A DNA stretch of 64,000 nucleotides, from the IMG/VR virus record IMGVR_UViG_3300023047_000002; one strand, 5' to 3'. The notes below the pieces were generated by a model. It was not told the DNA's origin, searched no databases, and saw only the letters and a list, made by a program, of their open reading frames with translations. The stretch comes from a virus (Duplodnaviria; Caudoviricetes). Shown here piece after piece: positions 17,341-49,352 of this stretch. The translations under genes were made by a program, and so were the position numbers. Numbering within the stretch: the first letter of the stretch is position 1; each line of letters opens with the position of its first letter.

Positions 17341-18505
17341 CTATGTTCGCCTCCAATATCTCTGCGATTTTTTTGCCCCAAGCATAAGCAAGCAGAGGAG
17401 GAACAGCATCGCCTATCTGCTCGTATTTGTCTTGTGTAGTGCGGTCAATGTGTGGAACAAGATAAGGACCACCACAAAAGTCATAAGAGTCTGGGAATGA
17501 TTGCAATCTTGCACATTCACGAACCGTGAGAGCACGATTATGGTTCGGATGCACAAATTCATCCAGACAGTGACTTGTTACGGTCGGAGAAGGTTCTCCG
17601 CTAATCAAGCGGTAATTTCGCTTGATAAACATCTTCTTGGGCAAGATTCTCTCTGCCTGTAATGCCTCTCGCTCCTCGCCTGTGTATCGGTCGAAAAGGT
17701 CTTTCAAACTTTCGCCCTGTTTCAGCAGTTCGAATCGTTGCAAGGTACAGGCACGATGTTTCATAGGTTTGTGGTAAGTGATTTCTTTTACTTCGCCACG
17801 ATTCCAGAAAGATGCATTTTTCATCAGCAAGGAGAAAGCGCTCTCTGTTCCAGTGTAGGTGGTGCCTTCTTCCTCTGTGTTTGGAATGACATTCGGCAAA
17901 CCTGCAAATGCCTCTGCGACAGTTACCTCTTTGTTGCAAGTCGGAACAGGTGCAGACAGCAACCATTTCGGGTCTTTGCTTGCGAGGATAAAATATCTCT
18001 TTCTCCGTTGGGGAACACCGAACTGTGTGGCAGAGAGAACGACCTCAATGTAATTGCCGTAACCTGCCTCGGTCAATTCTCGTTTCAGTACATCAACAAT
18101 CAATTCCTTAGAGGTTTTCTCCACGGTCTTGGTTGTGATGGCTGGCACATTCTCGAATAGAATCATTTTCGCATTTGCGATTTGAGCAATGCGAATTCCC
18201 TCACGGAATAAAAACTGTCTGTCATCGTAGAAAGAACGAGAGGTATTGCCCGCAGTAGAAAAGGTTTCGCACGGCATACCAGATGTAACAAGGTCAATCC
18301 CTTCTTTAGGAATAAAGGGCAGAATCTGCTCTGCAGTGACCTTGCGAATATCGGAATGAATGACATAAACTTCTGGATGGTTCGCAGAATAAGTCTCGCA
18401 ACAACTCTTTATGTATTCAATGGCAACCTTGGTGTCAAATCCTGCGGCGTGCAAACCTGTGCAGATGCCACCTGGGCCAGCAAAGCAATCTATATGTGTT
18501 AGCAT
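17327..18505 (-). CDS. dcm: C5 cytosine DNA methyltransferase
   Basis: FAGPGG, GMPCETFS, ENV, QRRKR, RECARLQSFP, QIGDAVPP; ATG at 18505 with GGAGGTG RBS and an upstream TGcTATAAT. Confidence 0.92.
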   Translation of the reverse strand: MLTHIDCFAGPGGICTGLHAAGFDTKVAIEYIKSCCETYSANHPEVYVIHSDIRKVTAEQILPFIPKEGIDLVTSGMPCETFSTAGNTSRSFYDDRQFLFREGIRIAQIANAKMILFENVPAITTKTVEKTSKELIVDVLKRELTEAGYGNYIEVVLSATQFGVPQRRKRYFILASKDPKWLLSAPVPTCNKEVTVAEAFAGLPNVIPNTEEEGTTYTGTESAFSLLMKNASFWNRGEVKEITYHKPMKHRACTLQRFELLKQGESLKDLFDRYTGEEREALQAERILPKKMFIKRNYRLISGEPSPTVTSHCLDEFVHPNHNRALTVRECARLQSFPDSYDFCGGPYLVPHIDRTTQDKYEQIGDAVPPLLAYAWGKKIAEILEANIDANR

Positions 18506-18668
18506 TGTGGCACACCTCCGTAGGTGTAGATACAAAAATTCATCATATATTATAGCATAAAGGGTCGAAAAAGCCATAGGATTTTGTAAAAAAGATATGA
18601 CGAAATTTCGACATATCAAAAAAGCAGAGGCAACCCACTAAAGCAGGTTGGCTTGCGGCTCGCCTCTG

Positions 18669-18905
18669 TTAAATGCCTGAATTGCCATTATCGGAAATGT
18701 CCCGAAGACGGTCAAAATGTTCATTAAGAATTGACATGATTGCCAAGTCTTTCTTTGCAAGGTAATCCATGAGTTCAATCAACACCTTGGACAAGTACTT
18801 GATGTTCTCATCAGCCATAATCTCTTCATCTGTTCTCATAACGACATACTCCACAAATAGTTCTAAAACGACAAGATACCCTGTCGTTTTAGAAATATAA
18901 CACAA
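18669..18905 (-). CDS. Small hypothetical protein
   Basis: ORF downstream of a TGGTGCTG promoter; real start probably a downstream ATG (MRTDEE). Confidence 0.5.
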   Translation of the reverse strand: MCYISKTTGYLVVLELFVEYVVMRTDEEIMADENIKYLSKVLIELMDYLAKKDLAIMSILNEHFDRLRDISDNGNSGI

Positions 18906-18933
18906 AATATATTAAATACCTTTATCAGCACCA
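18894..18933 (-). promoter_or_regulatory. Phage promoter TGGTGCTG-N23-TGtTATATT
   Basis: Motif family. Confidence 0.65.
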
Positions 18934-18950
18934 TAGAACCGACACAGGAC

Positions 18951-19679
18951 TTACTGAGGCGGATTCCAGTTTCCAGAACGTGTCGAAGAAAATCCCTGAC
19001 TTGAGGACATTCTATGGATACCTGTGTTTCCATCTCTGTGAACACGTCTGTCAGTTATCACATACGGTGATAGTTCTTCTTGGTCAACAGTGTCGTTCAC
19101 AGAAGATACAGGTCGTAATGAACGATTCGATTGAGCGCAAGTCTGAGGAACAGGATTCCTTATGGAATACGGACTTTCCTGTGCGTTAAAACGCTCCTGC
19201 GTACTTCGCATCTGATTCTGAACAACAGAAGTGTTATCATGCGGCACAGAGAAATCCGCGTCGAATTCTTCCTCGTTGTTGTTATACGGAAGCGTTGAAA
19301 GATCATTCAAATCCAAATTATCATCCTCATCAGATACAATCTTCTTAGCATCAGAGAACTTTACATTAACACGAGTATTCCCTTTCTTCAGATTCATCTC
19401 TGGCAGACGTAACTGTTCCCCACGTGCCCGAGCTTTCTCAGACACATGTGAAAGGATGTAAGCTACAGAGACGAGAACTGAACCTACTGCAAGAATCATG
19501 CGGACTTCGTTCGTAAGATGCGAGAAATCAAGTATAACACCGAATAGGATTCCCAGATAAACGATTACCAAAGTCCATGTAAAAGAAATTTTCGTAAAAC
19601 GTGCCACCAACGGCATCACCACACTGAAAAGCACAAGGAAACCGATGATGAAAAAAAGCGTATGCGTTGCGTTCAACAT
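18951..19679 (-). CDS. Membrane protein with three N-terminal TM segments (holin-like candidate)
   Basis: Three hydrophobic stretches followed by a polar low-complexity tail. Confidence 0.55.
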   Translation of the reverse strand: MLNATHTLFFIIGFLVLFSVVMPLVARFTKISFTWTLVIVYLGILFGVILDFSHLTNEVRMILAVGSVLVSVAYILSHVSEKARARGEQLRLPEMNLKKGNTRVNVKFSDAKKIVSDEDDNLDLNDLSTLPYNNNEEEFDADFSVPHDNTSVVQNQMRSTQERFNAQESPYSIRNPVPQTCAQSNRSLRPVSSVNDTVDQEELSPYVITDRRVHRDGNTGIHRMSSSQGFSSTRSGNWNPPQ

Positions 19680-19736
19680 GACACAATCCTCACAAAGGCC
19701 CCTAACTCATCTGACAGTGCTTAGATAGATTTTAAG

Positions 19737-21341
19737 TTACACAGGGACGAAACCATCCTCATCATTTTCGCCACCACCCTCTTCGTTTTCCTGTGTTTCA
19801 GGTTGAGGATTGTTGTAACCCAGGGCGTCAAGCAGGTCATCATTCTTGAACACCTTATGAAGAATGAAGTAAATCAGTTCACGTTTATTAACGCCATTCA
19901 TGTATTCAGGGTCAATCTTTGCAACGATATCAAGTGCGGAATTCATACGTTCAACTTCCGCAGTAATCGCAGTCGCACGCTTTTCGTCCTCACCTGTAAG
20001 AATTGTAGGCATCTGAATTGAAAACTCAGGCGGCATAATGTCGTCAATAAGACATTTCCAGATAACGAGCTTCTTGATACCTTCACGCAGAATACGCTGC
20101 ACACGTTTGACTTTTCGTGCATAACGAATATCAAGCTGCGTAAGTGTTGAATCATTCAGCCCACCGCCTGTTTCGTCGGCGAAGCCAAGAAATTGCGGAG
20201 GAACGCCTAAAGCTCCCATAAATGATTTCAAGATATTGTTCACATCCGTAAGCTGTCCAATCTCGGTTGGAGCAGAAACCTCGTTTACATTTACATTACC
20301 AACACCGTTTCTGACGGGAATATATACGTTTCCACCTGTTATCATCGGAGCATTTACAGAACTGAAAACACCCTGCGCGACATTAAGAGATTGTTTTGAG
20401 TTGATGGCCGTGCGTACCTCACGCATCATCCGGGCTGTATCCTGACTTGTTGCGTTACCGACCTCAACACTGAAAATACGATAAAAAGCACTTCTAGTAA
20501 GACGTGCAAGAATCAATAAGTCATCCAATAATTTCTTCTGTCTGAAAAGGTACTTTGCGGCCTCAAGGAAACTCGTACCATAACGGATGACAACACCGTC
20601 ATCAGGGTCTCCTACTGACTGGTCTTGCCCACGGTCAGAAATGAAATGTATGTAAGATTTCTCTGGAAGAATCGCATCACTTTCTCCATACGTGTATACA
20701 CCATCACCTTCTCGTATGGCATACCCAAGAGGTGCACCAAAACGAAACAGGTGAATACACTCAAGAGGATCAGCAATTGAAAAGAAATCACCAAGAGTAA
20801 AATTATCACGATACACGTCGTTCGTAAAATTCGTATTCAGAAAGCACTCTCCGAAAGCAACAATATTGAAAGCTATCGGGTAAATAAGGTCATTGATATT
20901 CACAGTATCTGCAAGCCACTGGGTCATCATGTCACCAAAATCAGGGTCATCCTGACATGTAACCCATGCCGCAAGATTCGTGTCATTATCGATGATACTT
21001 GAATCCTCTGCGATTAGCTCAACAGCTGCAATAACTGTTGCATCTGTAAGCATCTCCTTATAATCAGCAATCATTCCCTCTCTGTCAGTTGCATACGTGT
21101 GTATGTCACCTAGGATGGAACAATCTGTTCTTGAAATAAGGTCTTTCAGGAAATCGTCACGAGAATCTTGCGGGTCATCGACAACACGAACACGCCCACC
21201 AAACAGACTCTTCACCCACTGAATGAGACCACCGCTCTTTTTATCTACTACACCACCAGAGGACACAGATGGATGGACGCCCTGAGGATTCTCGTTGTCC
21301 GAATTAACTCTAGTTGTCTTTGGAACTGTGCGTCCTGCCAT
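19737..21341 (-). CDS. Portal protein (T4 gp20-like)
   Basis: YKEMLTD...AAVELIAED, YGTSFLE, LDDLLILARLTRS..YRIFSVEVGN, ALGVPPQFLG, DIRYARKVKRVQ. Confidence 0.88.
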   Translation of the reverse strand: MAGRTVPKTTRVNSDNENPQGVHPSVSSGGVVDKKSGGLIQWVKSLFGGRVRVVDDPQDSRDDFLKDLISRTDCSILGDIHTYATDREGMIADYKEMLTDATVIAAVELIAEDSSIIDNDTNLAAWVTCQDDPDFGDMMTQWLADTVNINDLIYPIAFNIVAFGECFLNTNFTNDVYRDNFTLGDFFSIADPLECIHLFRFGAPLGYAIREGDGVYTYGESDAILPEKSYIHFISDRGQDQSVGDPDDGVVIRYGTSFLEAAKYLFRQKKLLDDLLILARLTRSAFYRIFSVEVGNATSQDTARMMREVRTAINSKQSLNVAQGVFSSVNAPMITGGNVYIPVRNGVGNVNVNEVSAPTEIGQLTDVNNILKSFMGALGVPPQFLGFADETGGGLNDSTLTQLDIRYARKVKRVQRILREGIKKLVIWKCLIDDIMPPEFSIQMPTILTGEDEKRATAITAEVERMNSALDIVAKIDPEYMNGVNKRELIYFILHKVFKNDDLLDALGYNNPQPETQENEEGGGENDEDGFVPV

Positions 21342-21401
21342 GAAAACCTCCAATGTTACGAAACGCAAACAAGATCATAGGTTTAGATTAAACGCACCAT
21401 G

Positions 21402-22475
21402 TCACGGAAGATAGGGGTCGAGTATCTTTGGATTGCTTCTATACATAGAGACAAATTCATCAGTTACCCATGAGGGAAACACCCGTATCCCGTTAAACCC
21501 GCGACTGTATGTCTCACGCTCATGATGTTGATCACAAATATTCTTCATGTAAGACGACACAATAAACTTGAACGTCGTATCAACAACATCAAGACCAAGT
21601 TCTTCACAAACATCACGTGCAGTTCTAAACGATATCTTCTGATTCTGAACAGGTAGTGCATCACGAAGTTCAAGAACCATCTGTTCAAGCACAGATATCC
21701 TATCCATAACATGCTGCGGAACGTACATGCCGGTCTTACGTATGGCAGGAAGAACTTCAGAAGTCACCCACTTACGAAATGACTTTGCCTCTGGTTTATT
21801 TGAACGCATTATCAACGCGTACAAACCAGACTCTGAAATCATTGTCATGTCCTGACTGCCTCCAAGGGTGTCGGCTTTTCCTACACCCTTTTCATCAGCA
21901 TCCAATCTCGACACAGCATCACGAGAGTTGGCAATACATAAACAATCACACACATCCTTAGCGACGAACCACGGAGCATCGTCTTTTACAATAACTCGAA
22001 CCTTAAACGCATTGCTGTTGAAGTGTTTAACAAGACTGTTAGGTCTGTCCGTGTCTTGAAGATGAACACTTGACGACACACAAGAATCACTTTCGTCCTC
22101 ATAATCAACGTGTTCACATTTCGGACTATTACATAACGACCCGTCAATAAACGAGGGTTCTGAACTTTCAATGTCTTCTTTAGAGTAAAGGCTACTCACA
22201 ACTACGGTTTCAAACCAATCACGAAACAAACGACTTTGCTTAGATTTTGACTTCCTGCATAAAGTCCTGACACCATTAAGAGTCAAATAACTTCGACCAC
22301 AAGGATGACCTGACAGAACTTTATCACACATAGGAACATGAGCAAGTGCCAAATCAAGCATCTTACGGCCTATACTGAAAACAACGCAAGCCGCATCGAA
22401 TAAAGGACACTCGCCGTCAAAATCGACCGCAACATAAAACTCTTCATTCTCAAACTGCTGCACAATGAACCCCAT
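21402..22475 (-). CDS. BRO-N domain (antirepressor-like) protein
   Basis: PWFVAKDVC...ISESGLYALIMRSNKPEAKSFRKWVTSEVLPAIRKTG; second degenerate BRO-N at the N-terminus. Confidence 0.88.
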   Translation of the reverse strand: MGFIVQQFENEEFYVAVDFDGECPLFDAACVVFSIGRKMLDLALAHVPMCDKVLSGHPCGRSYLTLNGVRTLCRKSKSKQSRLFRDWFETVVVSSLYSKEDIESSEPSFIDGSLCNSPKCEHVDYEDESDSCVSSSVHLQDTDRPNSLVKHFNSNAFKVRVIVKDDAPWFVAKDVCDCLCIANSRDAVSRLDADEKGVGKADTLGGSQDMTMISESGLYALIMRSNKPEAKSFRKWVTSEVLPAIRKTGMYVPQHVMDRISVLEQMVLELRDALPVQNQKISFRTARDVCEELGLDVVDTTFKFIVSSYMKNICDQHHERETYSRGFNGIRVFPSWVTDEFVSMYRSNPKILDPYLP

Positions 22476-22478
22476 GAA

Positions 22479-23141
22479 TTACTTTATAACGAGACTGCAT
22501 AAAGATTGATTGACACCCTTTCTAGTTTCACGCTTTTCGACATTTAACGTCAACACATCCGCTTCAAGAAAGTCATCAATCCATTCATCCGACCGTACCA
22601 CGTAAAGTACATTTGCGTCTTCATCAGTAACAGAATACAGTCTAAAGTACTTACCATAAACATCTACGCCATCAGCCATGAATGAAACATGATAAGGAAC
22701 AATCGTTACCTTTCCGCAAGGAGCAAACTCATAACGCTGATTTTTTGATTTCCTGTCTTTTTTCCGGCAACCAAAATGCTGACGAAACATAAAAGCAAGA
22801 ACACACAAATCAGACTCTCGTACTGCGTGTTCGGTTCCAATGAACTTAGCCATCTCAACTAAGCGTGTCAGCAAGCGTTCCGCATTTCCATCTTTCGACA
22901 GACGTGAAATTAACGCATCGATTTCATTCAGGCATAACCTGGCTTTCTCCATACACACCTCTGATATCTCTGTGTCGATACTAACAGATCCTGTCTCTAT
23001 CGCATTTTTCACATAAGAAACAGGGTGTGGCTTCCACGACATAAAAGCATAAGCCATGTAAAGGCATGTTTTTGAAAGCGGTAAAGAAACAGACGAAGAC
23101 ACAACAGAAGCAGACAAATTCTCGACCATCGACCAACTCAA
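22479..23141 (-). CDS. Hypothetical protein
   Basis: 220-aa ORF; start uncertain, abuts the IS end at 23151. Confidence 0.55.
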   Translation of the reverse strand: MSWSMVENLSASVVSSSVSLPLSKTCLYMAYAFMSWKPHPVSYVKNAIETGSVSIDTEISEVCMEKARLCLNEIDALISRLSKDGNAERLLTRLVEMAKFIGTEHAVRESDLCVLAFMFRQHFGCRKKDRKSKNQRYEFAPCGKVTIVPYHVSFMADGVDVYGKYFRLYSVTDEDANVLYVVRSDEWIDDFLEADVLTLNVEKRETRKGVNQSLCSLVIK

Positions 23142-23150
23142 TGCACAAAG

Positions 23151-23297
23151 GTGAACTACCCACCGCCTAAAGGCAATGGACTCAAATCGAATATCTCACA
23201 AGGATTATGCCTGAATTCAACGAACAGTCCACATCGCTAGAAAAACCTAGTTTTGTTTCAATGACATCCACAGGCATAGGTTTCGATAGTTCCACGC
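23151..23297 (-). mobile_element. Degenerate IS605-family right end with omega-RNA-like scaffold
   Basis: Minus strand GTGGAACTATCGAAACCTATGCCTGTGGA...GTTCGTTGAA...CCTTTAGGCGGTGGGTAGTTCAC. Confidence 0.65.
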
Positions 23298-23346
23298 AAA
23301 TTAAAAAGCACGAACAGGCATTATCTGTTCGTGCTTTTTAATTTGC
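23296..23346. terminator. Long hairpin terminator
   Basis: GCAAATTAAAAAGCACGAACAG / CTGTTCGTGCTTTTTAATTTGC perfect inverted repeat. Confidence 0.75.
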
Positions 23347-23391
23347 ACTGTAAAGCGAAGCTAGAAATAGCTTCGCTTTGTGTTCTAAAGA

Positions 23392-25425
23392 TTAATAAAC
23401 CTTGACGATGGCAAACAAACGAGCACCGTTTTCGTTAAGGTTTACTGAATTTGCCCAATCAATGATTTGCGGGCAAGTACAGGTAAGCCGTTTACGGTCA
23501 TTTTCTGAAATCGTCGCAACGGTGTTCACCGGATTAAGTGCAGGAAGCATTTCAGGGGCAGTTTCGCCAGAAATGTAAACAGGCGAGATTTCCACGATAC
23601 AATCATCACTGAAACCCTTTGTGTTCAAACGATTGTCTGTAATTGTGATGTTTATGATTCCCATGTCTGCATCTTCTGACATTTCACAGTCAAAACATGC
23701 GGTACGACGTTTCGTTTCACCGTTAAGACCATCAGCATCAAGTATTTCAAGCATAGCCATGCAGATAGGAGCGCCTGAAATGTAGCTCGAATCACTGATG
23801 GTAAGAACGTTACGAGGATTACCATAAGAGGCATCCACAACGCTAAGAGCCAAGCCTGTATCTTTAGAATCACCCCATTCATAGAAATTCGTTGAAAGTT
23901 CATAACGTTTAACGCCATCATCAGGTTCCAAACCGGCACCGTCGCCGATGCTAAGTTTACCGTCACGGATGTCAACGCCATCAGAGCTGATACGTGTACC
24001 AGCTTTTGAATTATGAGTCAGTGTAGGATGCTGTGCGTTCCATGCGACAAGTTCTTCTTTGGCAAGATTGCGTTGTTCTGCAATTTCTGCCTCACGTTCT
24101 GCAAGGTTTTCTTCACTATGCATGTATTCTTCGGGGTCAACAAGTTTACCACCCTCTCCAATCATGCTGTCGGCGAGAGTTTGAATGTTTGTACCCAAAG
24201 CAATGTCATCGCCTTCATGGAAACCTAAAGACAGCAATGAAGCATTCAATGCGGCAAAGAATGTGTCATGGATTTCCGTTTCTGCGTCTTTCACTGTCCA
24301 CACAAAGGCATCCAAACCATAACGTAAAGAATAACCCGTTTCGGGAAGCGGCATCTGAGCAAGCCAAGAAACAGCATCACCAGAGACGCTAGGTACGATG
24401 GTTTCTTCGTCAATGGCATACATCATTTCGCCATCAATGGTGATACCTACGACGTTACCCTTTGAAGAACCACCAGCGGTTTTAATCGTACCAAACAGGA
24501 CATCACCCTCGCCATTACGCGGCAAAGCTCTCCATGTGGCGGCTTCTTCATCAAAAGTGACATCATAAAGATTGTCGTAAACGTAAATAACGTCTTCGCC
24601 GCCTTCACCCATTTCAATGGGATAAGATTCGCCAACTTCCGTGACGAACGTTCTAGTAACATCGCCGTCATCTTCTTTACCAGACTCAACAACCAGAGCG
24701 GCGTGTTGCATTTCGTATTCAACGGCTTCTACATCATCCCATGCTGTTTCACCTTCGGGCATCCATGCTTTTGTAGCATGAATATCCTGCTGAATATCAG
24801 TCTTGACGTATTTATAACCTTCTTCTCCGTCCGCAATGATAACGTCTGCTTTAATCGGAAGATTAGCTTGATCGATAACATTGCCGTCTTTGTCCAGAAG
24901 TTTAATATCACCCGTTGCTTGGTCAAACGCAATATGGAGACCGTCAAGACCGTTGATGTTTTTAAGGTCTTCAACTGTTGCGAAAGCATTGGGGTTGAAG
25001 GCAACGCTCTGGTAATTATTCACCGTAGTAATCGTGAACGAAGGATAGCAACCGTTGCCGATTTCAAAACCTTCTTTAAGGCTTGCAACAGCGATAACTT
25101 CTTCGACTTCTTCATCAAGGCGATACAGGACAAATGTTCTTGCTTCCGTTACTTCGGCTTCGTCTCCTGCTTCAAGATGACCGACAAGGCGACAATACCC
25201 AGAAGATTTGTGTTGGACAGTAACGTTAGAAGAAACCTTGTCACCGTTCTTAGCAAGAGGAAGGAATACGTTACCCTCTTCTAATGCTAAACCAGTGCCT
25301 TTGATGGCGTCAGCCATACTGACCGTACCATTCAAAGGAACGATACGCAAGGAATCAGAGTCAAGCATATCCTGACGGAAGTTACGAACAAGAACAGCGA
25401 AATCATCATAAGAAAAGTTACTCAT
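23392..25425 (-). CDS. Tail-fibre-like acidic structural protein
   Basis: ATG 25425 with AGGAG RBS; YVKTDIQQDIHATK fibre-type motif shared with the 40549-42727 gene. Confidence 0.55.
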   Translation of the reverse strand: MSNFSYDDFAVLVRNFRQDMLDSDSLRIVPLNGTVSMADAIKGTGLALEEGNVFLPLAKNGDKVSSNVTVQHKSSGYCRLVGHLEAGDEAEVTEARTFVLYRLDEEVEEVIAVASLKEGFEIGNGCYPSFTITTVNNYQSVAFNPNAFATVEDLKNINGLDGLHIAFDQATGDIKLLDKDGNVIDQANLPIKADVIIADGEEGYKYVKTDIQQDIHATKAWMPEGETAWDDVEAVEYEMQHAALVVESGKEDDGDVTRTFVTEVGESYPIEMGEGGEDVIYVYDNLYDVTFDEEAATWRALPRNGEGDVLFGTIKTAGGSSKGNVVGITIDGEMMYAIDEETIVPSVSGDAVSWLAQMPLPETGYSLRYGLDAFVWTVKDAETEIHDTFFAALNASLLSLGFHEGDDIALGTNIQTLADSMIGEGGKLVDPEEYMHSEENLAEREAEIAEQRNLAKEELVAWNAQHPTLTHNSKAGTRISSDGVDIRDGKLSIGDGAGLEPDDGVKRYELSTNFYEWGDSKDTGLALSVVDASYGNPRNVLTISDSSYISGAPICMAMLEILDADGLNGETKRRTACFDCEMSEDADMGIINITITDNRLNTKGFSDDCIVEISPVYISGETAPEMLPALNPVNTVATISENDRKRLTCTCPQIIDWANSVNLNENGARLFAIVKVY

Positions 25426-25508
25426 AAAAAAGCTCCTAAACGCCCCTGAAAATACACAAGGTAAAGACAAAAACACCCTGTGCGAAACTCTGTGAATCTA
25501 AAACATAT

Positions 25509-25716
25509 GTGAACTACCCACAGCCTAAAGGCGGTGGGCTTCAAGTTTCAACGAACAAGACTTAGCTTTCTTCTTAGTTGAATACTTGCCAGAGGTCTTA
25601 TTCTCAGTTCGCATTGTATTCCTACGTTCCATAGGAATTGAAAACCTTGTACCACAACAACAAAATTACTCGCCTTACCAACGGGCTAAAGCCCTTGGGC
25701 TTTCGGCTCGCTTTTG
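25509..25716 (-). mobile_element. Complete non-autonomous IS200/IS605 element (208 bp) with omega-RNA-like interior
   Basis: TTAC|CAAAAGCGAGCCG-AAAG-hairpin left end; GAAG-hairpin-TAGTTCAC right end; guide/cleavage pairs AAAG/TTAC and GAAG/TCAC. Confidence 0.8.
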
Positions 25717-26138
25717 GTAAAAACCACACCAACCCTAATGAAATCATGTACATGAAGCACACTACCGGAAAGAGTCAATGCTGAAATACGAAGCATGAAA
25801 CGTAAATCAGATTAAATTGAACACCAAACCACAAACCCGCATAAGGTACGTGTTGAAACGCAAGACATGTCAGGAAGTGGATTAAGTCATTACGAATGAT
25901 AATGACTGATGGAAGAGTAACCATCAAAGCACAGTCTAGTCGGGGGTATGCGTTCGATTATGTGAACTTGCCACGAATGAAACACCGTGGGTACTTTTTG
26001 AGAAAATTTCTCAAAAAGCAGGAGACAACCTCTATTAGTTATCTCTCACTATATTAGATAGAACGACCACTAAATTTTTACTGACCCACCAGGAAGTTTG
26101 GAATAAGGCACATGACACGGACGTTCTAAACATCTCCA

Positions 26139-26234
26139 CAAAAAAGTCGATCAGTAATCCCACCGACTTTAGGTTATGGGAGTACTGCTCGCGTCATGTT
26201 GAACCCTACCGACTTTAGTCTATGGGTATCTGAC
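26139..26234 (+). mobile_element. Degenerate two-hairpin IS200/IS605-type miniature element
   Basis: AATCCCACCGACTTTAGGTTATGGGAG and GAACCCTACCGACTTTAGTCTATGGGTATCTGAC. Confidence 0.55.
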
Positions 26235-26958
26235 AAGATTCATCATCCGAAATATAGCCCATGAAATGTTCGGACAACTCTTCAAGGTCATCAGCAAATG
26301 AACGCAGCTCAGAAATAAAATCCTGAATGCACTCCAAATCACAGTACTCAGGAGTATTTCCTCTCGCAAACTGAGACAAGGCTAAAAAAGTTCCGTTCTC
26401 CCCTTCCATCCTGTGCATGTTATTTAACAACGGAATGTCGCTCACGCGTTTTGAATAACGATTGTAAACGTCAAAAAGAAGTTTCAAATCATCTACATCC
26501 ACGACAACCGAATGACGCTTATAACCACACAAAGCATGTTCCATCTTGGTTATGGAACCTATCGGACGTAATACGCGTCCATCGACAGCAAGAACGTCCA
26601 ATGTGTTCGTAGCTTCGTTGAAAGACATAATCACAGGATAATCAATATCATCGAAAATGTCCAAACGGAGTCGTCCTCCACGAACATTAGACGCACTCCG
26701 TTTAAGGTTTTCAATAACGGACACATTCTCAGTCTTACGGATATAAACGCAACAAGAAAACGATGAGACACATCCATCAATGATTGCGGAGAATGTGTCT
26801 ATATACTCCAAGTCGGAGTTCTTAAGTTCGTGATTGAACACGTACTCTTGTTTTGCATTATGTACGGTTGGAAAGTCATCAATAAGATGACTTTTGCGAA
26901 GTGAATCATTATGGTTTTTGGTGTAGGACTTGATGATGTTTTCAAATCTGTAGTTCAT
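26215..26958 (-). CDS. Hypothetical protein
   Basis: 247 aa, GGAGG RBS, TGGTGCTG promoter upstream. Confidence 0.7.
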   Translation of the reverse strand: MNYRFENIIKSYTKNHNDSLRKSHLIDDFPTVHNAKQEYVFNHELKNSDLEYIDTFSAIIDGCVSSFSCCVYIRKTENVSVIENLKRSASNVRGGRLRLDIFDDIDYPVIMSFNEATNTLDVLAVDGRVLRPIGSITKMEHALCGYKRHSVVVDVDDLKLLFDVYNRYSKRVSDIPLLNNMHRMEGENGTFLALSQFARGNTPEYCDLECIQDFISELRSFADDLEELSEHFMGYISDDESCQIPID

Positions 26959-27013
26959 GTTTGCCTCCTTATGGCCTCATGTACGACGGACACCCTATCC
27001 GTCATACAAGTCA

Positions 27014-27053
27014 TTTATACCACAAGAGACAGAACACAATCGAAGCAGCACCA
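27014..27053 (-). promoter_or_regulatory. Phage promoter TGGTGCTG-N23-TGgTATAAA
   Basis: Motif family. Confidence 0.7.
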
Positions 27054-27056
27054 CAA

Positions 27057-27088
27057 AAAAAAAGGGATGCAGAACTGCATCCCTTTTT
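27057..27088 (-). terminator. Intrinsic terminator
   Basis: AAAGGGATGCAG-AA-CTGCATCCCTTTTT. Confidence 0.75.
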
Positions 27089-27108
27089 ACCATAAACGTC
27101 AACTACGA

Positions 27109-27843
27109 CTACATAACGAAATTTCCTTCAAGTGCTTTTGTGTCAATAGGTGCAGAAGGAATTGCGGGAGCTGAGGCCTGTACGTTCGACACCGTTCCAC
27201 CGTTTAGGAACGAACGGTACTTGTCAATGTTAAACCTCACACCGACAGCATCAAACAACTCATTGACATGAGCCTTCAGCGTCTCAGACACCCATTTTTT
27301 AAATTCAGGAATCTGTTGATAGAGACATGCAGAAGAACCTGCCATGGATTCAAGACCGCCAGCGAATTGTCCCGTGGTCGGCGTAAGGATCCAATCACGC
27401 GTCATGATATCGCCATTCGCAAAACTGTCTGCCATGCGTTTGTTGTATGTCTGGAAGTGAACACTCCAAACGCAGATACGAAGATTTTTCAGGCCAATAT
27501 CACTCACGATGGCACGGACAGGATCAGCAAGACCTTCATACGCCAAAACAGGGAACAGAATACGACGCGTCGTGTCCACATCAGGATTGCTTGCCATGTG
27601 TTTACAACACTCACCCTGGTCGCATAAAATCGTACCGAATCCTTTGAGATAGTGCTGCTGATATCCAAAACCACCGTCAGTCAGGAAAGCAATGCGTGTC
27701 TTACGTTGAGGATCAAGTTTGAGCTTGTTAATGGAAAATTCGTCAATGACAGAACCTGCGGGGATGTACGATGCAATCCCACCAAAGCCAATGCTGTCTG
27801 AACTGAGAAGTGATTTGACGTCGATCATAGTGTTTTCTGACAT
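27109..27843 (-). CDS. Putative ssDNA-binding protein (gp32-like, Zn-binding)
   Basis: HY...C...CC cluster, RIAFL, flexible C-terminal tail; GGAG RBS before ATG 27843. Confidence 0.45.
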   Translation of the reverse strand: MSENTMIDVKSLLSSDSIGFGGIASYIPAGSVIDEFSINKLKLDPQRKTRIAFLTDGGFGYQQHYLKGFGTILCDQGECCKHMASNPDVDTTRRILFPVLAYEGLADPVRAIVSDIGLKNLRICVWSVHFQTYNKRMADSFANGDIMTRDWILTPTTGQFAGGLESMAGSSACLYQQIPEFKKWVSETLKAHVNELFDAVGVRFNIDKYRSFLNGGTVSNVQASAPAIPSAPIDTKALEGNFVM

Positions 27844-28007
27844 TTCTTTTCTCCAAACGAAAATTAAGTTTTGTGTACTTATACGTGAGTAACCAAAATC
27901 ACGTACCCTGTCCAGAATACTGGAACTCGGACGACACTGTAACAAAAACCCGTGTGCCTCGATGTTTCTATGCGCATTCTCGAAACATCTCAGCGAACAC
28001 AAGAGGG

Positions 28008-28047
28008 GTTATAGCATAAATTTAAATCTTTTGGAACAACAGCACCA
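28008..28047 (-). promoter_or_regulatory. Phage promoter TGGTGCTG-N23-TGcTATAAC
   Basis: Motif family. Confidence 0.7.
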
Positions 28048-28066
28048 CGACGGTTGCGCTTTTTCT

Positions 28067-28498
28067 TTAAACACCCGTATGACCGAAACCTCCGGCTCCA
28101 CGTTCAGTCTCTTTTTCCACATGACCCACATGAGAAAACTTAACGGTTTCATGTTTAATGACGACCATCTGTGCGATACGATCACCGATAGCAATGATAA
28201 ACGGCGTTTGGCTCACATTGCACAGAATGACGCCGACCTCACCCGTGTAATCCGAGTCTACCGTTCCTGGGCTGTTCAGAACAAACACACCGTGCTTTGC
28301 TGCAAGACCACTGCGAGAACGAATTTCAACATGATAACCTTTCGGAATATCCATGCGTAATCCCGTCCGAATTACACGGTACTCACCAGGTAAAATCATC
28401 ACGGCTTCAGCAGAACACAAATCAGCTCCTGCGGCTTCCTCTGTAGAATAAACAGGCAGCTTGGCTGTCTCAGTCATCAACTCGATTCCAATATCCAT
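28067..28498 (-). CDS. dut: Trimeric dUTPase
   Basis: AAGADL, RSRSGLA, GTVDSDYTGE, GDRIAQ, RGAGGFGHTG. Confidence 0.95.
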   Translation of the reverse strand: MDIGIELMTETAKLPVYSTEEAAGADLCSAEAVMILPGEYRVIRTGLRMDIPKGYHVEIRSRSGLAAKHGVFVLNSPGTVDSDYTGEVGVILCNVSQTPFIIAIGDRIAQMVVIKHETVKFSHVGHVEKETERGAGGFGHTGV

Positions 28499-28507
28499 AC
28501 AATCTCC

Positions 28508-28627
28508 GAAAAAGTAACACGTCCATAAAGTGGTCTAGAATGCGTTTCTCGCGATTTTTTATTTTACCCTCATACTTACTAGGGTAAGGTCGTAACTTTT
28601 TAGTACAGGGCAAATGTTGAGGCTCTG
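28508..28627 (+). repeat. ~100-bp dispersed element, copy B
   Basis: Shares ACACGT.CATAAAG.GGTCTAGAATGCGTT and TACTTACTAGG with copy C, and the right arm with copy A. Confidence 0.65.
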
Positions 28628-28638
28628 TGTTTAAAATA

Positions 28639-29379
28639 TCACAGGGTTATTTGACATGGGATGGTCATCGTATCCCGGATACGTTTTATCTGTGTCCACA
28701 AGTTGCGTGCTTCCTGTTCGATTTCGTCTTTTGTTCTGTCCTTGTTCCAATCAAGTGTAATCACATGAGAGAACCGTGACAGGTTTGAAGTCAGCTCTCG
28801 GTACTCTGCTATAAGCCCTTCCATGTACTCACGTGGTATGCTGCTCTCGCACTTCCGTTTCTCTTTCTCACTGATACGTTGTGCAAGGCGACGCATCGAA
28901 GTGTCAGGTGATACATCCAGGTAAACAAAACATTGCGGGTACATAATCTCCCGAGACATGTTATGAAACAGCTCAAAGTAGCAGTCTGCTTCATCGTGCG
29001 TCATATCGCCGGACTTTTCGAGCTTACACACAAAAATCGAATCAGACCAGATAGAGCTGTCTGCAACAGAGTTTTCTCCATTCATTGACATCGCCTGAGC
29101 AAGACGTGTCTGCTCCAATCGTTTGTTCAAAAGGTAAATCTGAATCGTGAACGCCCATCTCGGAACGTCCTTGTAGTACGAGGCAAGAAATGGATTCTTT
29201 GAACCCTCATCGTCTTCGGTAGCAGGTTCGAACATTGTCCTGCATGGTTTACCAGTGTCTTCTTCAATCGCTTTGGATAAGGAACGACAGAAGGAAGTCT
29301 TTCCAGATGCGATGCATCCGATAACAGGAATATGAACTCCGGATGGATAAACGGCGCAGCGAAAATTTGAAATGGTCAT
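28639..29379 (-). CDS. Deoxynucleoside kinase (dNK family)
   Basis: GCIASGKTS P-loop, FEP, YYKDVPRWAF.IQIY.L..R, YLDVSP. Confidence 0.88.
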   Translation of the reverse strand: MTISNFRCAVYPSGVHIPVIGCIASGKTSFCRSLSKAIEEDTGKPCRTMFEPATEDDEGSKNPFLASYYKDVPRWAFTIQIYLLNKRLEQTRLAQAMSMNGENSVADSSIWSDSIFVCKLEKSGDMTHDEADCYFELFHNMSREIMYPQCFVYLDVSPDTSMRRLAQRISEKEKRKCESSIPREYMEGLIAEYRELTSNLSRFSHVITLDWNKDRTKDEIEQEARNLWTQIKRIRDTMTIPCQITL

Positions 29380-29402
29380 TTTGAAAATCCTCTTGCTTTG
29401 CA

Positions 29403-29449
29403 GTGAACTACCAACCGCCTAAAGGCGGTGGGCTTTCGGCTCTCTTTTG
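29403..29449 (-). mobile_element. 47-bp single-hairpin IS200/IS605 element with both left and right cleavage sites
   Basis: Minus strand TTAC|CAAAAGAGAGCCGAAAGCCCACCGCCTTTAGGCGGTTGGTAGTTCAC. Confidence 0.7.
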
Positions 29450-29590
29450 GTAAAAACTCACGGACAACGTGTACGAAACACTATGCAGTTCTGATACGAA
29501 CAATGTGGTTTTAGCAGGAACCGTAACCGGTGCACTCATGATACAGAACACGAATAAGCCAGAAAGACATTTTCGTCAACAGAGAACAGC

Positions 29591-29705
29591 GAAAAATGAA
29601 ACACGTTCATAAAGGGGTCTAGAATGCGTTCTACGAGATTTTATGGCTTAGGCATGTACTTACTAGGTCATGTTCAAAAAGTCGCGAGAACTGCATCCTA
29701 GGGCA
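29591..29705 (+). repeat. ~100-bp dispersed element, copy C (imperfect palindrome)
   Basis: CTAGAATGCGTTCTACGAGATTTT ... AAAAGTCGCGAGAACTGCATCCTAG arms around TACTTACTAGG. Confidence 0.65.
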
Positions 29706-29809
29706 CTGTATGTACGTGTTTACAGTTGAGTGATGACATATGGCTAAACTTCACCAAAGAATTCGAGATGCCTATCCACAGGTTCGCGGGAAGAGGTTAA
29801 AACCGGAGA

Positions 29810-31080
29810 CATGACCATAACCAGGTACGAAACCAATGTCACGACTAGAATTTTAACGACAGGATGCTTACGCACATGACTATAATCTTGATTTCAGGAT
29901 GATTTCATGAGCTAGAGCGCTCTTTGACACGACTAGGATTTTTAACAACATGATGCTTTCAGAACGTAGTAGAACGCTAAAGCATGACACGACTATGACT
30001 TTAACGACAGCACTGTTCAAAGTACGATACGACCATAACTTGATCACAGGTAGAGCGAAAACGCTCTTAGACAGGACTATGTTTTCACAGGAGAATTTTA
30101 ACAACAGGATGCTAAAGCATGACTATGTTATTTACTACAGGTGAAGACTTTACAGGAATTCGAGCTAGAACGCTCTTTGACTTGACTTCGATTTTTAACG
30201 ACAGGATGTGATGCTGAAAGCATGACTTGACTATAACTTGATCACATGATCTTTTACAGGATGCTAATGCTGAAAGCATGACATGACTTCGATTTTTAAC
30301 GACAGGGAGAATTTCAGGATGCTAAAGCACATGACTAGGATTTCATTGTCACATTAAGCAAAAATCATGCCAGCACATTCAAATCTTGCCATTTTTGACA
30401 TGACTATTATTTTCCCAGCCCATATAAGTTAATAATTAATGAACCCCACATAACTCTTTGATTTTATTGACATTTTTCAAACAACAAGGTTTACATCTCA
30501 AATCAGCGTTCATATAAGTTATAGGATCTACCTTATAAAAATTTATTCTTTGGGAAAATAAAATATTTTTATAAGATAGAGATATAACTTATATGAACGT
30601 GTCTTAGTAAGTTAAAGTGTGCGAAATAAAAAAGACAATAAAATCAATGGGTTACACGAGCTCCAATAATTATTAACTTATATGGGTAAAAAATAATCGG
30701 CATCCTGTGGTTAAGATCAAAGTCATGTCTAAGTGCAAGCATCCTGAAATCTTGTTAAGATCATGGTCGAGTCTTAAGGTAGTCCCCTCTACACAAAAAT
30801 CCTGTGGTTAAGATTAAAGTCATGTCTTGAGCATGAGCGCTCCATCCTGAAAGCATCATGTGGTTAAAATCAAAGTCATGTCTTGCTGTTTCAGCATCCT
30901 GAAATCTGTGAAGATCTTAGTCATGACCCTGTCGTAAGATTCTGAGAGCGTTCTTAGTCGAGTCTTGAGCATGAGCGTTCCATCCTGAAATTTCCTGAAA
31001 GCCTCCTGTGGTTAAGATCAAAGCCATGTCTTGCTGTTTCGGTCATGTCTGCATTGCGGTCAAAGTCATGTCTTGCTGAT
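29810..31080. other. Candidate bidirectional replication origin: inverted iteron arrays around an AT-rich palindrome
   Basis: Left TTTTAAC(G/A)ACAGGATGCT/CATGAC repeats; right CATCCTGTGGTTAAGAT/GTCATG repeats; nested IRs centred at 30553; strand-composition switch. Confidence 0.75.
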
Positions 31081-31184
31081 GACTTGTTCCTGATCGTCTT
31101 GCCTAATTTATCTTCTGACGACGATGCAGAACTCTTGATCATGATCGTCATACTACTGTCAGTTTATACGCATGTAATTGCTAC

Positions 31185-31306
31185 TTGCATCGGTTGGTTA
31201 TCTATGATATCAAGGTCTTGCGGCTAGGTTAGCTCCCGAAAAGGCGAAAGTCCAACGCGCTCTGCCGCTTTCTCACATCGTTGGACGTTGCGCAGTTGGA
31301 GGCAAC
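31185..31306 (+). promoter_or_regulatory. Sigma70-type promoter plus structured leader
   Basis: TTGCAT-N17-TATCAA; GTCCAACG (31250-57) is complementary to 31279-86 and to GTTGGA overlapping the RBS. Confidence 0.5.
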
Positions 31307-31307
31307 C

Positions 31308-32216
31308 ATGTCAGATATCACAAAAACAGAGTCACGTAAGCATTTCTGTCAGATCATAGATTTGTATCTGCCAAGCCTAGAAAAGGTAAAGGTCATCTTC
31401 GACGAGCTCTGTACGCTCATGTGTGTCGAGGACATAGAGAACTTGGTGGATGTACCAGAAGATTCGGTCTTATCTGATCTCTCAGACGAGATCATGCATT
31501 ATCTGTATGGTGTCAGCGGTGCACCTGTAAGTCAGTCCTTAAAAGATAAGTTGCGGGAACGCTGTAGTTGGTGTCCGCTGAGACATGTAGCGTCTGCACT
31601 CAATTTAGACGACTATCAAGCCATCGTTCACGCACGTAACGCCTACTCTGCTCAACTGTCCACTTGGGATGGATCTTCCATTGTTCAAGTCCCTAAATCA
31701 AAATTTGCCTTAAAACTTTACGACGACTTTGGCGTTTCAATAAGGAACTGCACGGATTATGGTCTGGATATCTCATCTCGTCTCTATCTCGGTCTTCAAC
31801 ACATTATGAAGTATTGGAGCATTGACATACTGACCAGAGAGCTGAAAATCAAGGCTACTGACGTGGATAGTGGAAAGAAATGGAAGCAATATGCAGGATG
31901 GACAGGAGACGGGAGATCCCAGGCAGTATCTTTCGCTCTTGCACCACGTATCCGAGATTATATAGATGAATTAAAAAAGGAACTTCGTGACAGCAGAAGG
32001 GATGTGTCAACCATAAAGTGTACTCTCGCAGAGACTTGTTTTGTTATGGTTCCTCGTAATGATCCACATATGCCTGAGAGCTGGAAATCGATTATATACC
32101 CTAAGACACCAAACGTTACGTTTTTCCCATATCACACATTGAAAGCAATCGGGCTTCCTGCAATACCTAAACTAGAAGACACAATAAACAACCTCACTTG
32201 TGGTATTCAGCAATAA
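31308..32216 (+). CDS. Hypothetical protein adjacent to the origin
   Basis: GGAGG RBS, ATG 31308. Confidence 0.7.
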   Translation: MSDITKTESRKHFCQIIDLYLPSLEKVKVIFDELCTLMCVEDIENLVDVPEDSVLSDLSDEIMHYLYGVSGAPVSQSLKDKLRERCSWCPLRHVASALNLDDYQAIVHARNAYSAQLSTWDGSSIVQVPKSKFALKLYDDFGVSIRNCTDYGLDISSRLYLGLQHIMKYWSIDILTRELKIKATDVDSGKKWKQYAGWTGDGRSQAVSFALAPRIRDYIDELKKELRDSRRDVSTIKCTLAETCFVMVPRNDPHMPESWKSIIYPKTPNVTFFPYHTLKAIGLPAIPKLEDTINNLTCGIQQ

Positions 32217-32339
32217 CCTCTAGGATAGTGATAAGTATTTTGTTTGCCCTGTAGCACTTGCTTTTATCAGATCCCTTGTATTGGTTTTTGCCCAATCAAA
32301 GTTGTGAGCATAAAACCACCACGTTTGGAGAATTTGAGT

Positions 32340-33800
32340 ATGGCAAAACGTAAAACGAAGAGCGATGAAATTGTGAGTACGGTTTCGTTGGAAACCCCTG
32401 TAGAGAACATGGAAACACTGGTTGATCCACCTGTAAGGAAATCAAGAAGGGTTAAGACCGAGAAAATGGAAACGGAGAAGACTGCATGTTCGTCCTCTGA
32501 TGAGGAGTCTTTACTTCTTGTTGCTGATTCAGAAGTAAAGGAATCTGAACCTCAGGAGTATTCGCATGAGGTTACGGAAACAGAAACAGAGGAACCTGAA
32601 CCTTTCCGTATTGCTTCTGTTCCTTGTAAGCCGAAAGAGTCTGACGGTGATGATTCTGTGATACAGCTTGTGCCAGATACTGATGTGCCGGCACAAGCAG
32701 ATGCGTATGATGAGCCTGAACCTTTTCGTGTGGTTGATGTTCCGCCAAACAGCATAGCGTCTGATGATTACGATGCATGTCAGAGCATTAGCGTTCCTGT
32801 TACGGAGAAACGTAAGGATGAGGGTTACCTTCGGTTAAACAGACCTAAACTCGGTATGCTTATGGTTAAACAAGAACTTGAGGACTCAGTCGAAAGTGAT
32901 GATATTTCTTTAGTCAGTGAATCTGATGAGAATGATTCCGATGAAACTCATCCTGATACTGGTGATGCTTCACAGCAGGATATGGATGATTTCTTTGTCG
33001 TTCACAGGCGTGTGTCTTCTGATGATGTTCCTCAGGATTACGATGAACCTGATGAAACGATTCCAGATGATTTCGCTGATGAACCGAGTGATTATTTGGA
33101 TGACGGTGATGTCGAAGAACCTTGTGACCCGGATAGTTCATCTTATCCACCGTGTCTTGGAGCACCTGTTTATCCTGTGTCTATTTGTAAGGGTGTTTCT
33201 GATTTACCGTTCGTCAAAAAGTCTTCGTCAGACAAGTGCTATCTTGTACCTGGTGGAAAGAATGAAAAGTTGCGTTTCGAACACTCTTATACGGTGAAGA
33301 AATCACGTCCTTACAGACGCGATGTGAACTCTGAGCTTGAGGATACGTGCATTGCTGATATGCCTTATTACTGCTTCGATGGTCACGTTGTAGGCATGGC
33401 CAATGAGTTCGATCCGCTGTCTGGTATGTACGCGAATGAGGTCTACACGACACGCGGTGTGTATTTTTTCAGAACTTGTTCCGAATTGCCTGATCGTTCA
33501 TGTTCGTATGATGACTTTTTCCAGGCGATTTTGAATTCCGTCATTCTCTACGATGCAGAGTTTACTCCGTTATGTGATTTGCCTGGATATGACTGTGATT
33601 CTGTGGACAGCGAATGCGATGACATTTCCGTTGTGTGTATGGGTGTTCTTGAGGTGTGTGGTGTTCGCTATGGTATGCGTTCAGATTGCACGGTTGATTT
33701 TGAAAGCGTGATTAGAGCTTTGTGGGAAATCATAAACACAGATGACTCTGATGAAGATCTTGGATTTTATCGTGCGTACTTTAAACTTTTAGGAGACTGA
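32340..33800 (+). CDS. Acidic low-complexity protein
   Basis: D/E-rich, two EPEPFR repeats; probable ATG 32340. Confidence 0.65.
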   Translation: MAKRKTKSDEIVSTVSLETPVENMETLVDPPVRKSRRVKTEKMETEKTACSSSDEESLLLVADSEVKESEPQEYSHEVTETETEEPEPFRIASVPCKPKESDGDDSVIQLVPDTDVPAQADAYDEPEPFRVVDVPPNSIASDDYDACQSISVPVTEKRKDEGYLRLNRPKLGMLMVKQELEDSVESDDISLVSESDENDSDETHPDTGDASQQDMDDFFVVHRRVSSDDVPQDYDEPDETIPDDFADEPSDYLDDGDVEEPCDPDSSSYPPCLGAPVYPVSICKGVSDLPFVKKSSSDKCYLVPGGKNEKLRFEHSYTVKKSRPYRRDVNSELEDTCIADMPYYCFDGHVVGMANEFDPLSGMYANEVYTTRGVYFFRTCSELPDRSCSYDDFFQAILNSVILYDAEFTPLCDLPGYDCDSVDSECDDISVVCMGVLEVCGVRYGMRSDCTVDFESVIRALWEIINTDDSDEDLGFYRAYFKLLGD

Positions 33801-39016: not shown

Positions 39017-39592
39017 TCACACGGTCTCGTCCCAGAAAGCCGCCTCTGTGTCTGCCTGTTGAAGCATGATTAGCAAGCGGCTTTTTCGCATTGCATTGTT
39101 CAAAGCAATCATTTCATTTGAACCAATCATCAGGCCGAAGTTGCCCATGTGCCATCTAACGGCCAGTGCTTCATCGTTCGTAAGATTAATGTGCCGCTGT
39201 ATCAGAAACAGACTTTTTTCACCATGTCCCAATGGGAATTGGTCGTCAAACGTGTAATAAGGCACTTTTACCCACTTGCCGTTTTCGTCTTTAGTGTTTC
39301 GTAAGTCTTGCTTGTAAAAGTTTGCTTTGCATAAGTCATGGAACAGGGATACGATTGCCAGACTTTCTCGGCTTATGCCATCACATGCTGATACTTTTGT
39401 CATAATCCGTTTGTGTACGTTTAGACTGTGTAAGCACAGTCCGCCCTTGAAACAGCTGTGGTACTTTGCGGATGCAGGTGCCGTATAGAAGTCCGTAGTT
39501 TCAAGCCAGGAAAGCAAGTTTTCGACACCATCTCTGTGGATTTCGTTCTGGACAGTATTAACAAATTGATCATGGAGTATGTTCAAGTTCAT
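39017..39592 (-). CDS. HD-domain phosphohydrolase
   Basis: FYTAPASAKYH...GGLCLHSLNV...FHDLCK...GHGEKS...RWHMG...AD. Confidence 0.88.
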   Translation of the reverse strand: MNLNILHDQFVNTVQNEIHRDGVENLLSWLETTDFYTAPASAKYHSCFKGGLCLHSLNVHKRIMTKVSACDGISRESLAIVSLFHDLCKANFYKQDLRNTKDENGKWVKVPYYTFDDQFPLGHGEKSLFLIQRHINLTNDEALAVRWHMGNFGLMIGSNEMIALNNAMRKSRLLIMLQQADTEAAFWDETV

Positions 39593-49296: not shown

Positions 49297-49304
49297 GGTT
49301 TCTA

Positions 49305-49337
49305 CCCAACACTGTTTGTTAGACAGTGTTGGGTTTT
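49305..49337 (+). terminator. Intrinsic terminator
   Basis: CCCAACACTGT...ACAGTGTTGGGTTTT. Confidence 0.65.
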
Positions 49338-49352
49338 GCTTTTGGTAGAGTG

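Follow-up and report, generated by a model that had tools for sequence, protein, structure and literature searches.

The 1.9-kb gap without open reading frames at positions 29380 to 31307 of the 64,000-nucleotide viral DNA analysed here (IMG/VR record IMGVR_UViG_3300023047_000002; the whole stretch is called the window) is probably the primary bidirectional (theta-type) replication origin of its source, an uncultured jumbo myophage, that is, a large tailed phage with a genome of ~230-240 kb. Features by which theta origins are recognised were found together at this site: a repeat cluster, an adjacent A+T-rich segment and a strand-composition switch with origin polarity. A bidirectional theta origin had been put forward here in the original prediction, and this reading was supported computationally by the skew switch at the gap, by its polarity and by the conserved anatomy of the locus.

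The window encoded a T4-like portal (19737-21368) and further structural proteins (a tape-measure-like protein, baseplate proteins and fibre genes), together with genes for nucleotide metabolism and DNA modification (C5 cytosine methylase, dUTPase, deoxynucleoside kinase or dNK, thymidine kinase), recombination (RecA/UvsX-like, RuvC-like and SbcCD-like proteins) and replication (primase, clamp-loader subunit and an intein-containing family-A DNA polymerase). A Bro-N protein was also encoded in the window. In a protein search among isolate phages, the nearest isolate by portal protein was Bacillus phage SP-15, with 29% identity only. Genes were on the minus strand throughout from 17327 to 29379 and on the plus strand from 31281 to 63916, save two short minus ORFs (39017-39592 and 63372-63602), in agreement with the earlier remark that most genes point away from the site. 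The gap and its neighbours were as follows:

28639..29379, minus strand: dNK gene, which bounds the gap on the left and served as synteny anchor in the search for relatives
29380..31307, no strand: ORF-free gap (ORF lists), the whole candidate origin region, between divergent gene blocks
31308..32216, plus strand: ORF302, candidate origin-core binding protein, adjoining the gap in all relatives
32244..33800, plus strand: very acidic 518-aa protein (pI 4.2) whose C-terminal part is conserved; its gene accompanies the gap in every relative

No credible ORF was listed between 29380 and 31307, and blastn returned no nucleotide match to the gap from a set of 50,697 phage records. The tRNA scan detected no tRNA in the gap, the Rfam scan returned no family at or above the gathering score (a hairpin artefact and a weak int-alpA match only), and sigma-70-like promoters were not in excess (7 vs. 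5.3 +/- 1.9); the gap was thus left unexplained by the Rfam, tRNA and promoter/terminator scans alike.

The core of the gap was the AT-rich imperfect palindrome that had been described as centred on 30553, with nested perfect inverted repeats; both were present at these positions. The four CATATAAGTTA boxes read there by eye were recovered as two inverted pairs, and these were the only copies in the 64 kb (exactly 4, every one inside the core):

30419..30686, no strand: A+T-rich imperfect palindrome, the presumed unwinding element, ~270 bp, 70-80% A+T, centre 30553/4
30421..30431, plus strand: outer-left CATATAAGTTA box, in the context CCCATATAAGTTAATAATTA
30511..30521, plus strand: inner-left CATATAAGTTA box, in the context CGTTCATATAAGTTATA
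30585..30595, minus strand: inner-right CATATAAGTTA box
30674..30684, minus strand: outer-right CATATAAGTTA box

The outer arms of the palindrome (30419-30477 / 30628-30686) were 59 nt long and 81% complementary, with the first 20 nt perfect; the inner inverted repeat (30507-30523 / 30583-30599) was perfect over 17 nt, the perfect repeats of the core thus being separated by 59 and 228 nt; and the innermost arms (30527-30551 / 30556-30580) were 84% complementary around a 4-nt spacer. A hairpin-telomere resolution site was considered for this palindrome but carries little weight, since such a site needs a perfect one. Measured over 80 bp at a time, A+T content was highest (0.78-0.80) in the segments that begin at 30520 and 30560 (~30520-30640), against ~0.58 for the whole window. 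Folded as single-stranded DNA, the 306-nt core reached -56.4 kcal/mol (z = -11), and the left half aligned to the reverse complement of the right half with a score of 93, compared with 23.6 +/- 2.5 for shuffled sequences and 24 for the direct orientation. A pair of IHF-consensus motifs (30451-30463 and 30642-30654) was placed symmetrically in the core, but the motif was not enriched in the window (8 vs. 5.2 expected) and the pair was dropped as an explanatory feature.

Two repeat arrays flanked the core:

29807..30413, minus strand: left array, ~11 C-boxes ([AG]GTC[AG]NG[TA]C), about six of them in full ~30-bp composite units
30700..31078, plus strand: right array, 7-8 C-boxes, mirroring the left array

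Their opposite orientation around the core was as originally described, at the coordinates given. The repeats were, however, not simple 15-mers, the real units being ~30-bp composites mixed with partial units. Anchored on the C-box, the order within a unit was CATCCTG, GTTAAGAT and AGTCATGTC, over ~30 bp, and the CATCCTG end faced the core. About six full or near-full copies were present per side, with partial units interspersed. In the left array the full unit had the form CATCCTGT[CG]GTTAA[AG]A...AGTC[AG]TGTC; in the right array four full composite units were found at about 30701, 30799, 30854 and 31003, and two more, at 30740 and 30895, carried a 6-nt insertion. The units also held a -10-like TAAGAT.

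With up to one mismatch, AGTCATGTC occurred 10 times on the minus strand at 29808-30405 and 7 times on the plus strand at 30721-31072; its total of 41 matches (22.8 +/- 4.5 in shuffled sequence) was reached in 0 of 100 shuffles. GCATCCTG occurred 4 times on the minus strand to the left and 3 times on the plus strand to the right, and nowhere else in the window (7 observed vs. 1.06 expected, again reached in 0 of 100 shuffles). The 17 C-boxes and 7 GCATCCTG copies thus form a repeat cluster at 29807-31078 far beyond chance. The arrays were of unequal length (about 600 and 380 bp), and their spacing was irregular (39-108 bp), unlike the regular phasing of classical iterons. Two classes of site are real, the core boxes and the composite units of the arrays, which bears out the two binding-site classes claimed earlier.

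No cluster of DnaA boxes (TTATNCACA) was present in the gap: the right array held four TTAACCACA, each mismatched at box position 4, and a single CTATCCACA was located at 29772. The left array and the relatives deviated further from the DnaA box than the right array did, and DnaA boxes were consequently rejected as a conserved feature. As regards a phage-encoded dnaA gene, there was no Bac_DnaA match in either of two related IMG/VR genomes, G001 (138 kb, which includes L001) and G002 (227.6 kb, 96% complete, which includes L002). The DnaA of the host might still act at the site.

The strand bias that had been seen by eye (A/C-rich to the left, G/T-rich to the right) corresponded to a computed strand-composition switch at the gap. 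Cumulative skew is an established means of locating an origin; in the window, it was lowest at 29,161 for GC and at 30,802 for keto bases. An inflection elsewhere had been named in the original prediction as evidence against an origin; since the switch sits at the gap, the origin reading is favoured. Because the gap also divides divergent transcription, third-codon-position skew was measured separately for plus and minus genes. Third-position GC skew (plus strand) was -0.163 for plus genes and -0.061 for minus genes left of the gap, and +0.108 for plus genes and +0.155 for minus genes (a single 192-codon gene) right of it. Third-position AT skew flipped at the gap likewise, in the reverse sense. 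As the flip was seen for genes of either strand, the switch is not only a by-product of divergent transcription. G exceeded C and T exceeded A on the strand running 5' to 3' outward from the site, a polarity which is that of an origin and not of a terminus.

The skew of the two related genomes was similar. At or near the homologous gap of G001 (~85,984-87,187) lay both its GC-skew minimum (85,750) and its AT-skew maximum (86,278). The 1.4-kb repeat-rich gap of G002 (48,120-49,550) contained the minima of GC skew (48,571) and of keto skew (49,350), and a single maximum at ~145-149 kb completed the V and inverted V of two replication arms. Third-position GC skew in both genomes tracked the replication arm and not the gene strand. 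Skew is itself indirect, and the window, G001 and G002 are related, so their three profiles are not independent tests. According to one study, ~30% of huge phage genomes have a GC skew indicating bidirectional replication (PMC7162821).

Relatives from ENA, the scaffolds L025 (238.7 kb) and L034 (234.5 kb) plus several short Logan/ENA contigs, extended the comparison. The order dUTPase, dNK, gap, ORF302, acidic protein, 77-aa ORF and RecA-like gene was kept in L025 and L034, and in L030, L031 and L028 as far as these contigs reach. An A+T-rich inverted repeat with repeat arrays was present in six related contigs: L030, L031, L025 and L034 had mirrored arrays around an A+T-rich palindrome, while in L001 and L002 the array was one-sided. 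The second array being missing in these two, mirror symmetry is common but not essential. The A+T maximum (0.75-0.80) fell on the inverted repeat in every relative, and five relatives shared the A+T-rich centre next to the repeats. Array motifs drifted with the overall divergence between relatives: the window had AGTCATGTC as its C-box, L025 and L034 had AGTCGAGTC or AGTCGTGTC, and the repeat of L002 was unrelated. The distance from CATCCTG to the C-box varied among relatives from 11 to 25 nt, which points to separate protein sites rather than to a promoter. A scan of IMG/VR with the composite-unit pattern gave three single chance matches (L003-L005) and no arrays.

The family of ORF302, the protein encoded next to the gap, was clade-specific and very small: a set of 1.84 billion proteins contained 13 representatives, and a protein-pattern search of IMG/VR gave no match. 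The protein diverged far more between relatives than its neighbours did. Compared with the window, L001 was 97% identical for dNK, 89% for dUTPase, 91% for the RecA-like protein, 96% for the 77-aa ORF and 79% for the acidic protein, but 27% for ORF302; the values for L034 were 96%, 90%, 74%, 75% and 53%, against 28% for ORF302. Identities of 27-28% were thus found where neighbouring proteins had 53-97%, mostly 74-97%. The core palindrome differed in each ORF302 allele group, and the box types CGTTCATATA[AT] and CCCATATAA were kept in every relative whose ORF302 was at least 62% identical. Such co-variation of protein and core is what a cognate protein-site pair would show if it were swapped as one cassette.

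An AlphaFold model of ORF302 built from a 19-sequence alignment (pLDDT 84, pTM 0.69; an 8-sequence alignment gave an unusable pLDDT of 58) showed two alpha/beta domains and a long helix. The best structural match was the N-domain of CpGV Orf22 (4ye7_B, Z 7.2); matches to the APSES domains of Mbp1, Swi6 and Bqt4 and to Dachshund/Ski domains had Z 2.9-3.9 and spanned both ORF302 domains, and Bro-N clusters (Atlas) reached TM 0.53 normalised by target. These best matches agree in being alpha/beta domains of DNA-binding type, but they are weak and fall in a range in which arrangements also arise by chance. Foldseek against PDB and BFVD returned nothing at E <= 1e-3, the Bro-like rows present in the BFVD comparison included. 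None of the 19 family members (0/19) matched Bro-N or KilA-N in the Pfam scan, hhalign of ORF302 against the Bro-N protein of the window gave a probability of 0.15%, and ORF302 could be linked to no DNA-binding family at Pfam/HMM level; an AAA+/Orc1 domain (Pfam) and an NTPase motif were likewise absent. The resemblance of its predicted domains to the Bro-N/KilA-N/APSES group of DNA-binding domains is thus weak; within this group, the viral KilA-N domain is a homologue of APSES domains (PMC4862756). Given the lack of profile similarity and of a significant Foldseek match, and a pI of 6.2, by which the protein is not basic, ORF302 is a putative DNA-binding protein only, and a candidate core-binding initiator that always adjoins the gap and co-varies with the core. 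The acidic 518-aa protein, for which neither Pfam nor PHROG gave a match, may act as a partner or bind the arrays. Atlas feature searches gave no usable match for either protein.

The following sequence of events may be proposed for the candidate origin. A phage-encoded sequence-specific protein, most likely the adjacent ORF302, would bind the four boxes as two head-to-head pairs. The 80% A+T centre would then melt, possibly helped by cruciform extrusion or DNA bending, and two copies of the phage DnaB-like helicase, which is encoded in relatives, would be loaded in opposite directions, after which the phage primase, clamp loader and family-A polymerase would take over. A second, more conserved factor might bind the arrays, or the core-binding protein might do so through another of its domains, giving a symmetric nucleoprotein complex that would assist opening or control firing. 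Later replication is probably recombination-driven, because the RecA/UvsX-like, RuvC-like and SbcCD-like genes directly follow.

A more far-reaching version of this scheme, which we hold only tentatively and regard as possible rather than probable, takes ORF302 as a new initiator family whose two Bro-N/KilA-N-like domains would read the four-box core. ORF302 and core would then be a swappable specificity cassette with at least four allele groups among jumbo phages that are nearly identical otherwise, and the conserved mirrored arrays would recruit a second factor, making a two-tier origin whose logic would be nearer that of archaeal and eukaryotic-virus origins than that of the iteron origins of lambda and plasmids.

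As the gap separates divergent transcription units, regulatory functions are to be expected there too, and the site might be a control region for divergent transcription and not an origin. The palindrome would then hold operators for a Bro-N/KilA-N-like regulator, ORF302, and the arrays would be tandem outward-firing promoters or regulator sites governing the nucleotide-metabolism/structural genes to the left and the recombination/replication genes to the right. The composite units do point outward and contain the -10-like element, the domains that ORF302 weakly matches in fold are those usual in transcription regulators and anti-repressors, and a DNA-binding protein swapped together with its sites is also typical of immunity/regulatory modules. 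Nevertheless, this reading is unlikely: besides the lack of an excess of sigma-70-type promoters, 0 predicted promoters coincided with the units, the motifs were found nowhere else in the 64 kb and hardly elsewhere in G001 or G002, the variable distance between CATCCTG and the C-box is unlike a promoter, and the strand-composition switch, which is independent of gene orientation, would be left unexplained. A control region would in any case not exclude origin function; transcription-activated origins are known from T7, T4 and lambda. A pac site or another cis-acting site (for partition, or a nucleoid-anchoring array), with repeats binding the terminase small subunit or a segregation protein and a secondary coincidence with the skew, is highly improbable. 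Multiple repeated protein-binding sites in non-coding DNA are typical of pac and par sites, but no terminase or ParB-type gene lay beside the gap, where the neighbours were dNK, dUTPase, ORF302, the acidic protein and the RecA-like gene, and for such sites one would not predict that an A+T-rich palindrome coincides exactly with the skew minimum of three genomes.

A mirror-symmetric, palindromic site could also mark a genome end: an uncut telomere-resolvase target, or the fused inverted terminal repeats of an end-replicating linear genome, joined in replicative forms or by the assembler. End-initiated replication would likewise give origin-like skew polarity at the joined end, and four short contigs from other samples (L026-L029) terminate inside the palindrome. 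We consider a junction of this kind extremely improbable. Seven independent assemblies (the window, G001, G002, L025, L030, L031 and L034) cross the site with different genes on either side; the arms, 81-84% complementary only, and the unequal arrays speak against fused ends, as does the missing second array in L001 and L002. No protelomerase (ResT/TelK catalytic domain) was found in G001 or in the 96% complete G002, and the replication genes include a family-A polymerase, primase, clamp loader and DnaB-like helicase, not a protein-priming family-B polymerase. A hairpin telomere combined with an internal origin would be expected to give terminus polarity. The contig ends are most simply explained by the assembly graph breaking at inverted repeats: with the short k-mers used to build Logan contigs, breaks at inverted repeats of 30-76 nt are expected.

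The reading of the gap as a replication origin would have consequences beyond this phage. To our knowledge, the origins and initiators of huge or jumbo phages have hardly been described so far. The locus gives a precisely bounded origin candidate with two site classes, natural variants (mirrored vs. one-sided arrays, and four different cores) and a candidate initiator whose specificity is testable through allele/core swaps. Its confirmation would bring a new initiator family and a modular exchange of replicon specificity in jumbo phages, and the origin would be usable for engineering or for coverage-based measurement of phage activity in metagenomes.

Among known systems, the archaeal oriC has inverted ORB or mini-ORB elements flanking a duplex-unwinding element, beside orc1/cdc6. 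The gap shares with it the inverted sites around an A+T-rich unwinding region, the adjacent (candidate) initiator gene and the position at a skew minimum, but ORF302 lacks an AAA+/Orc1 domain, the repeats are unrelated, and there are two site classes here instead of one. The SV40 core origin has four GAGGC boxes as inverted pairs, HSV-1 oriS and oriL have an A+T centre between inverted UL9 boxes, and this geometry assembles two head-to-head helicase/initiator complexes for two-way unwinding. The palindrome, the A+T-rich centre and the two inverted pairs of a short box are alike; the SV40 and HSV-1 initiators, however, are SF3 or SF2 helicases, whereas ORF302 has no NTPase motif, and the core here is ~270 bp with additional arrays of 400-600 bp. 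As far as we know, the members of the Bro-N/KilA-N/APSES group are regulators or anti-repressors and not replication initiators. The predicted alpha/beta domains of ORF302 match best, though weakly, to this group (PMC4862756), but without sequence or profile similarity.

Lambda (O protein and ori-lambda) and iteron plasmids also have repeats beside an A+T-rich region (PMC4980987, PMC7466680), and initiator and origin are there a specificity module exchanged between related phages. The lambda iterons, however, are four regular direct copies on one side, inside the O gene, whereas the sites described here are intergenic, mirrored and irregular. Early theta-type bidirectional replication from one site is indicated by skew in huge phages (PMC7162821) and by read coverage in ICP1 (PMC7145576). 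As far as we know, these two papers place origins by skew or coverage and give neither site anatomy nor a candidate initiator, both of which the present locus offers. Skew-defined two-way replication in huge phages and iteron or A+T-rich origins are thus already known; new are, for a phage, the mirrored arrangement with its two site classes, whose logic comes nearest to that of the archaeal ORB and the SV40/HSV palindromic origins, then the natural variant series, and a candidate initiator family that has no known relatives and is exchanged along with its core.

Four independent short contigs of relatives, drawn from Logan and MEGAHIT assemblies, had one end (L026:1, L027:1, L028:1 and L029:1) within the central palindrome. 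These ends lay 565-719 bp ahead of ORF302, the gene beside the candidate origin gap. An inner box, one of the 11-bp core repeats, formed the exact start of L026. The four ends probably result from assembly breaks at inverted repeats; real DNA ends are a less likely reading.

The leader upstream of ORF302 (31034-31307) was 79% identical to that of L025, a 238.7-kb scaffold of a relative, unlike the adjoining arrays, which had diverged between the two; it is possibly a promoter or 5' UTR that has been conserved. Rfam gave a weak int-alpA RNA match at 31217-31284 (E 0.16, under the gathering score). Within the right-array units, TTAACCACA occurred four times on the minus strand (30706-31015), each copy with one mismatch to the DnaA-box consensus; the motif was kept neither in the left array nor in the relatives, and was rejected as a conserved DnaA-box feature.

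An extremely acidic 518-aa protein, with a pI of 4.2 and a net charge of -32 across residues 201-300, was encoded at 32244-33800; it showed conservation in its C-terminal ~200 aa and had no family or fold assignment. Its gene adjoined the gap in every relative; in L002, the locus of the 227.6-kb contig G002, it lay on the opposite side. The contig L030, from a 99% relative of the window, carried an IS605-type TnpB/OrfB gene (433 aa, L030:3684-4985) directly after ORF302, at the place that the acidic protein gene takes in the window; the outer-left box was absent from L030 owing to a ~70-bp deletion.

The window also encoded a family-A DNA polymerase (55458-60818, 1786 aa) with intein-splicing, Hint and LAGLIDADG matches, and the ORF probably carries two inteins. 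The two longest ORF-free gaps of G002 (G002:C1:1709-2921, 1.2 kb, and 161748-162715, 1.0 kb), as ranked by a rough ORF caller that placed a short spurious ORF within the 1.43-kb candidate origin gap and thereby divided it, could contain RNA genes or secondary origins.

Short sequences of ~80 nt were repeated at several intergenic sites in the window and its relatives:

window 29590-29667, intergenic, ~80-nt recurrent sequence
window 8444-8525, intergenic, ~80-nt recurrent sequence
L001:6763-6872 (locus of the 138-kb contig G001), intergenic, short recurrent sequence
L025:2625-2702, intergenic, short recurrent sequence

These ~80-nt sequences look like small mobile hairpin elements.
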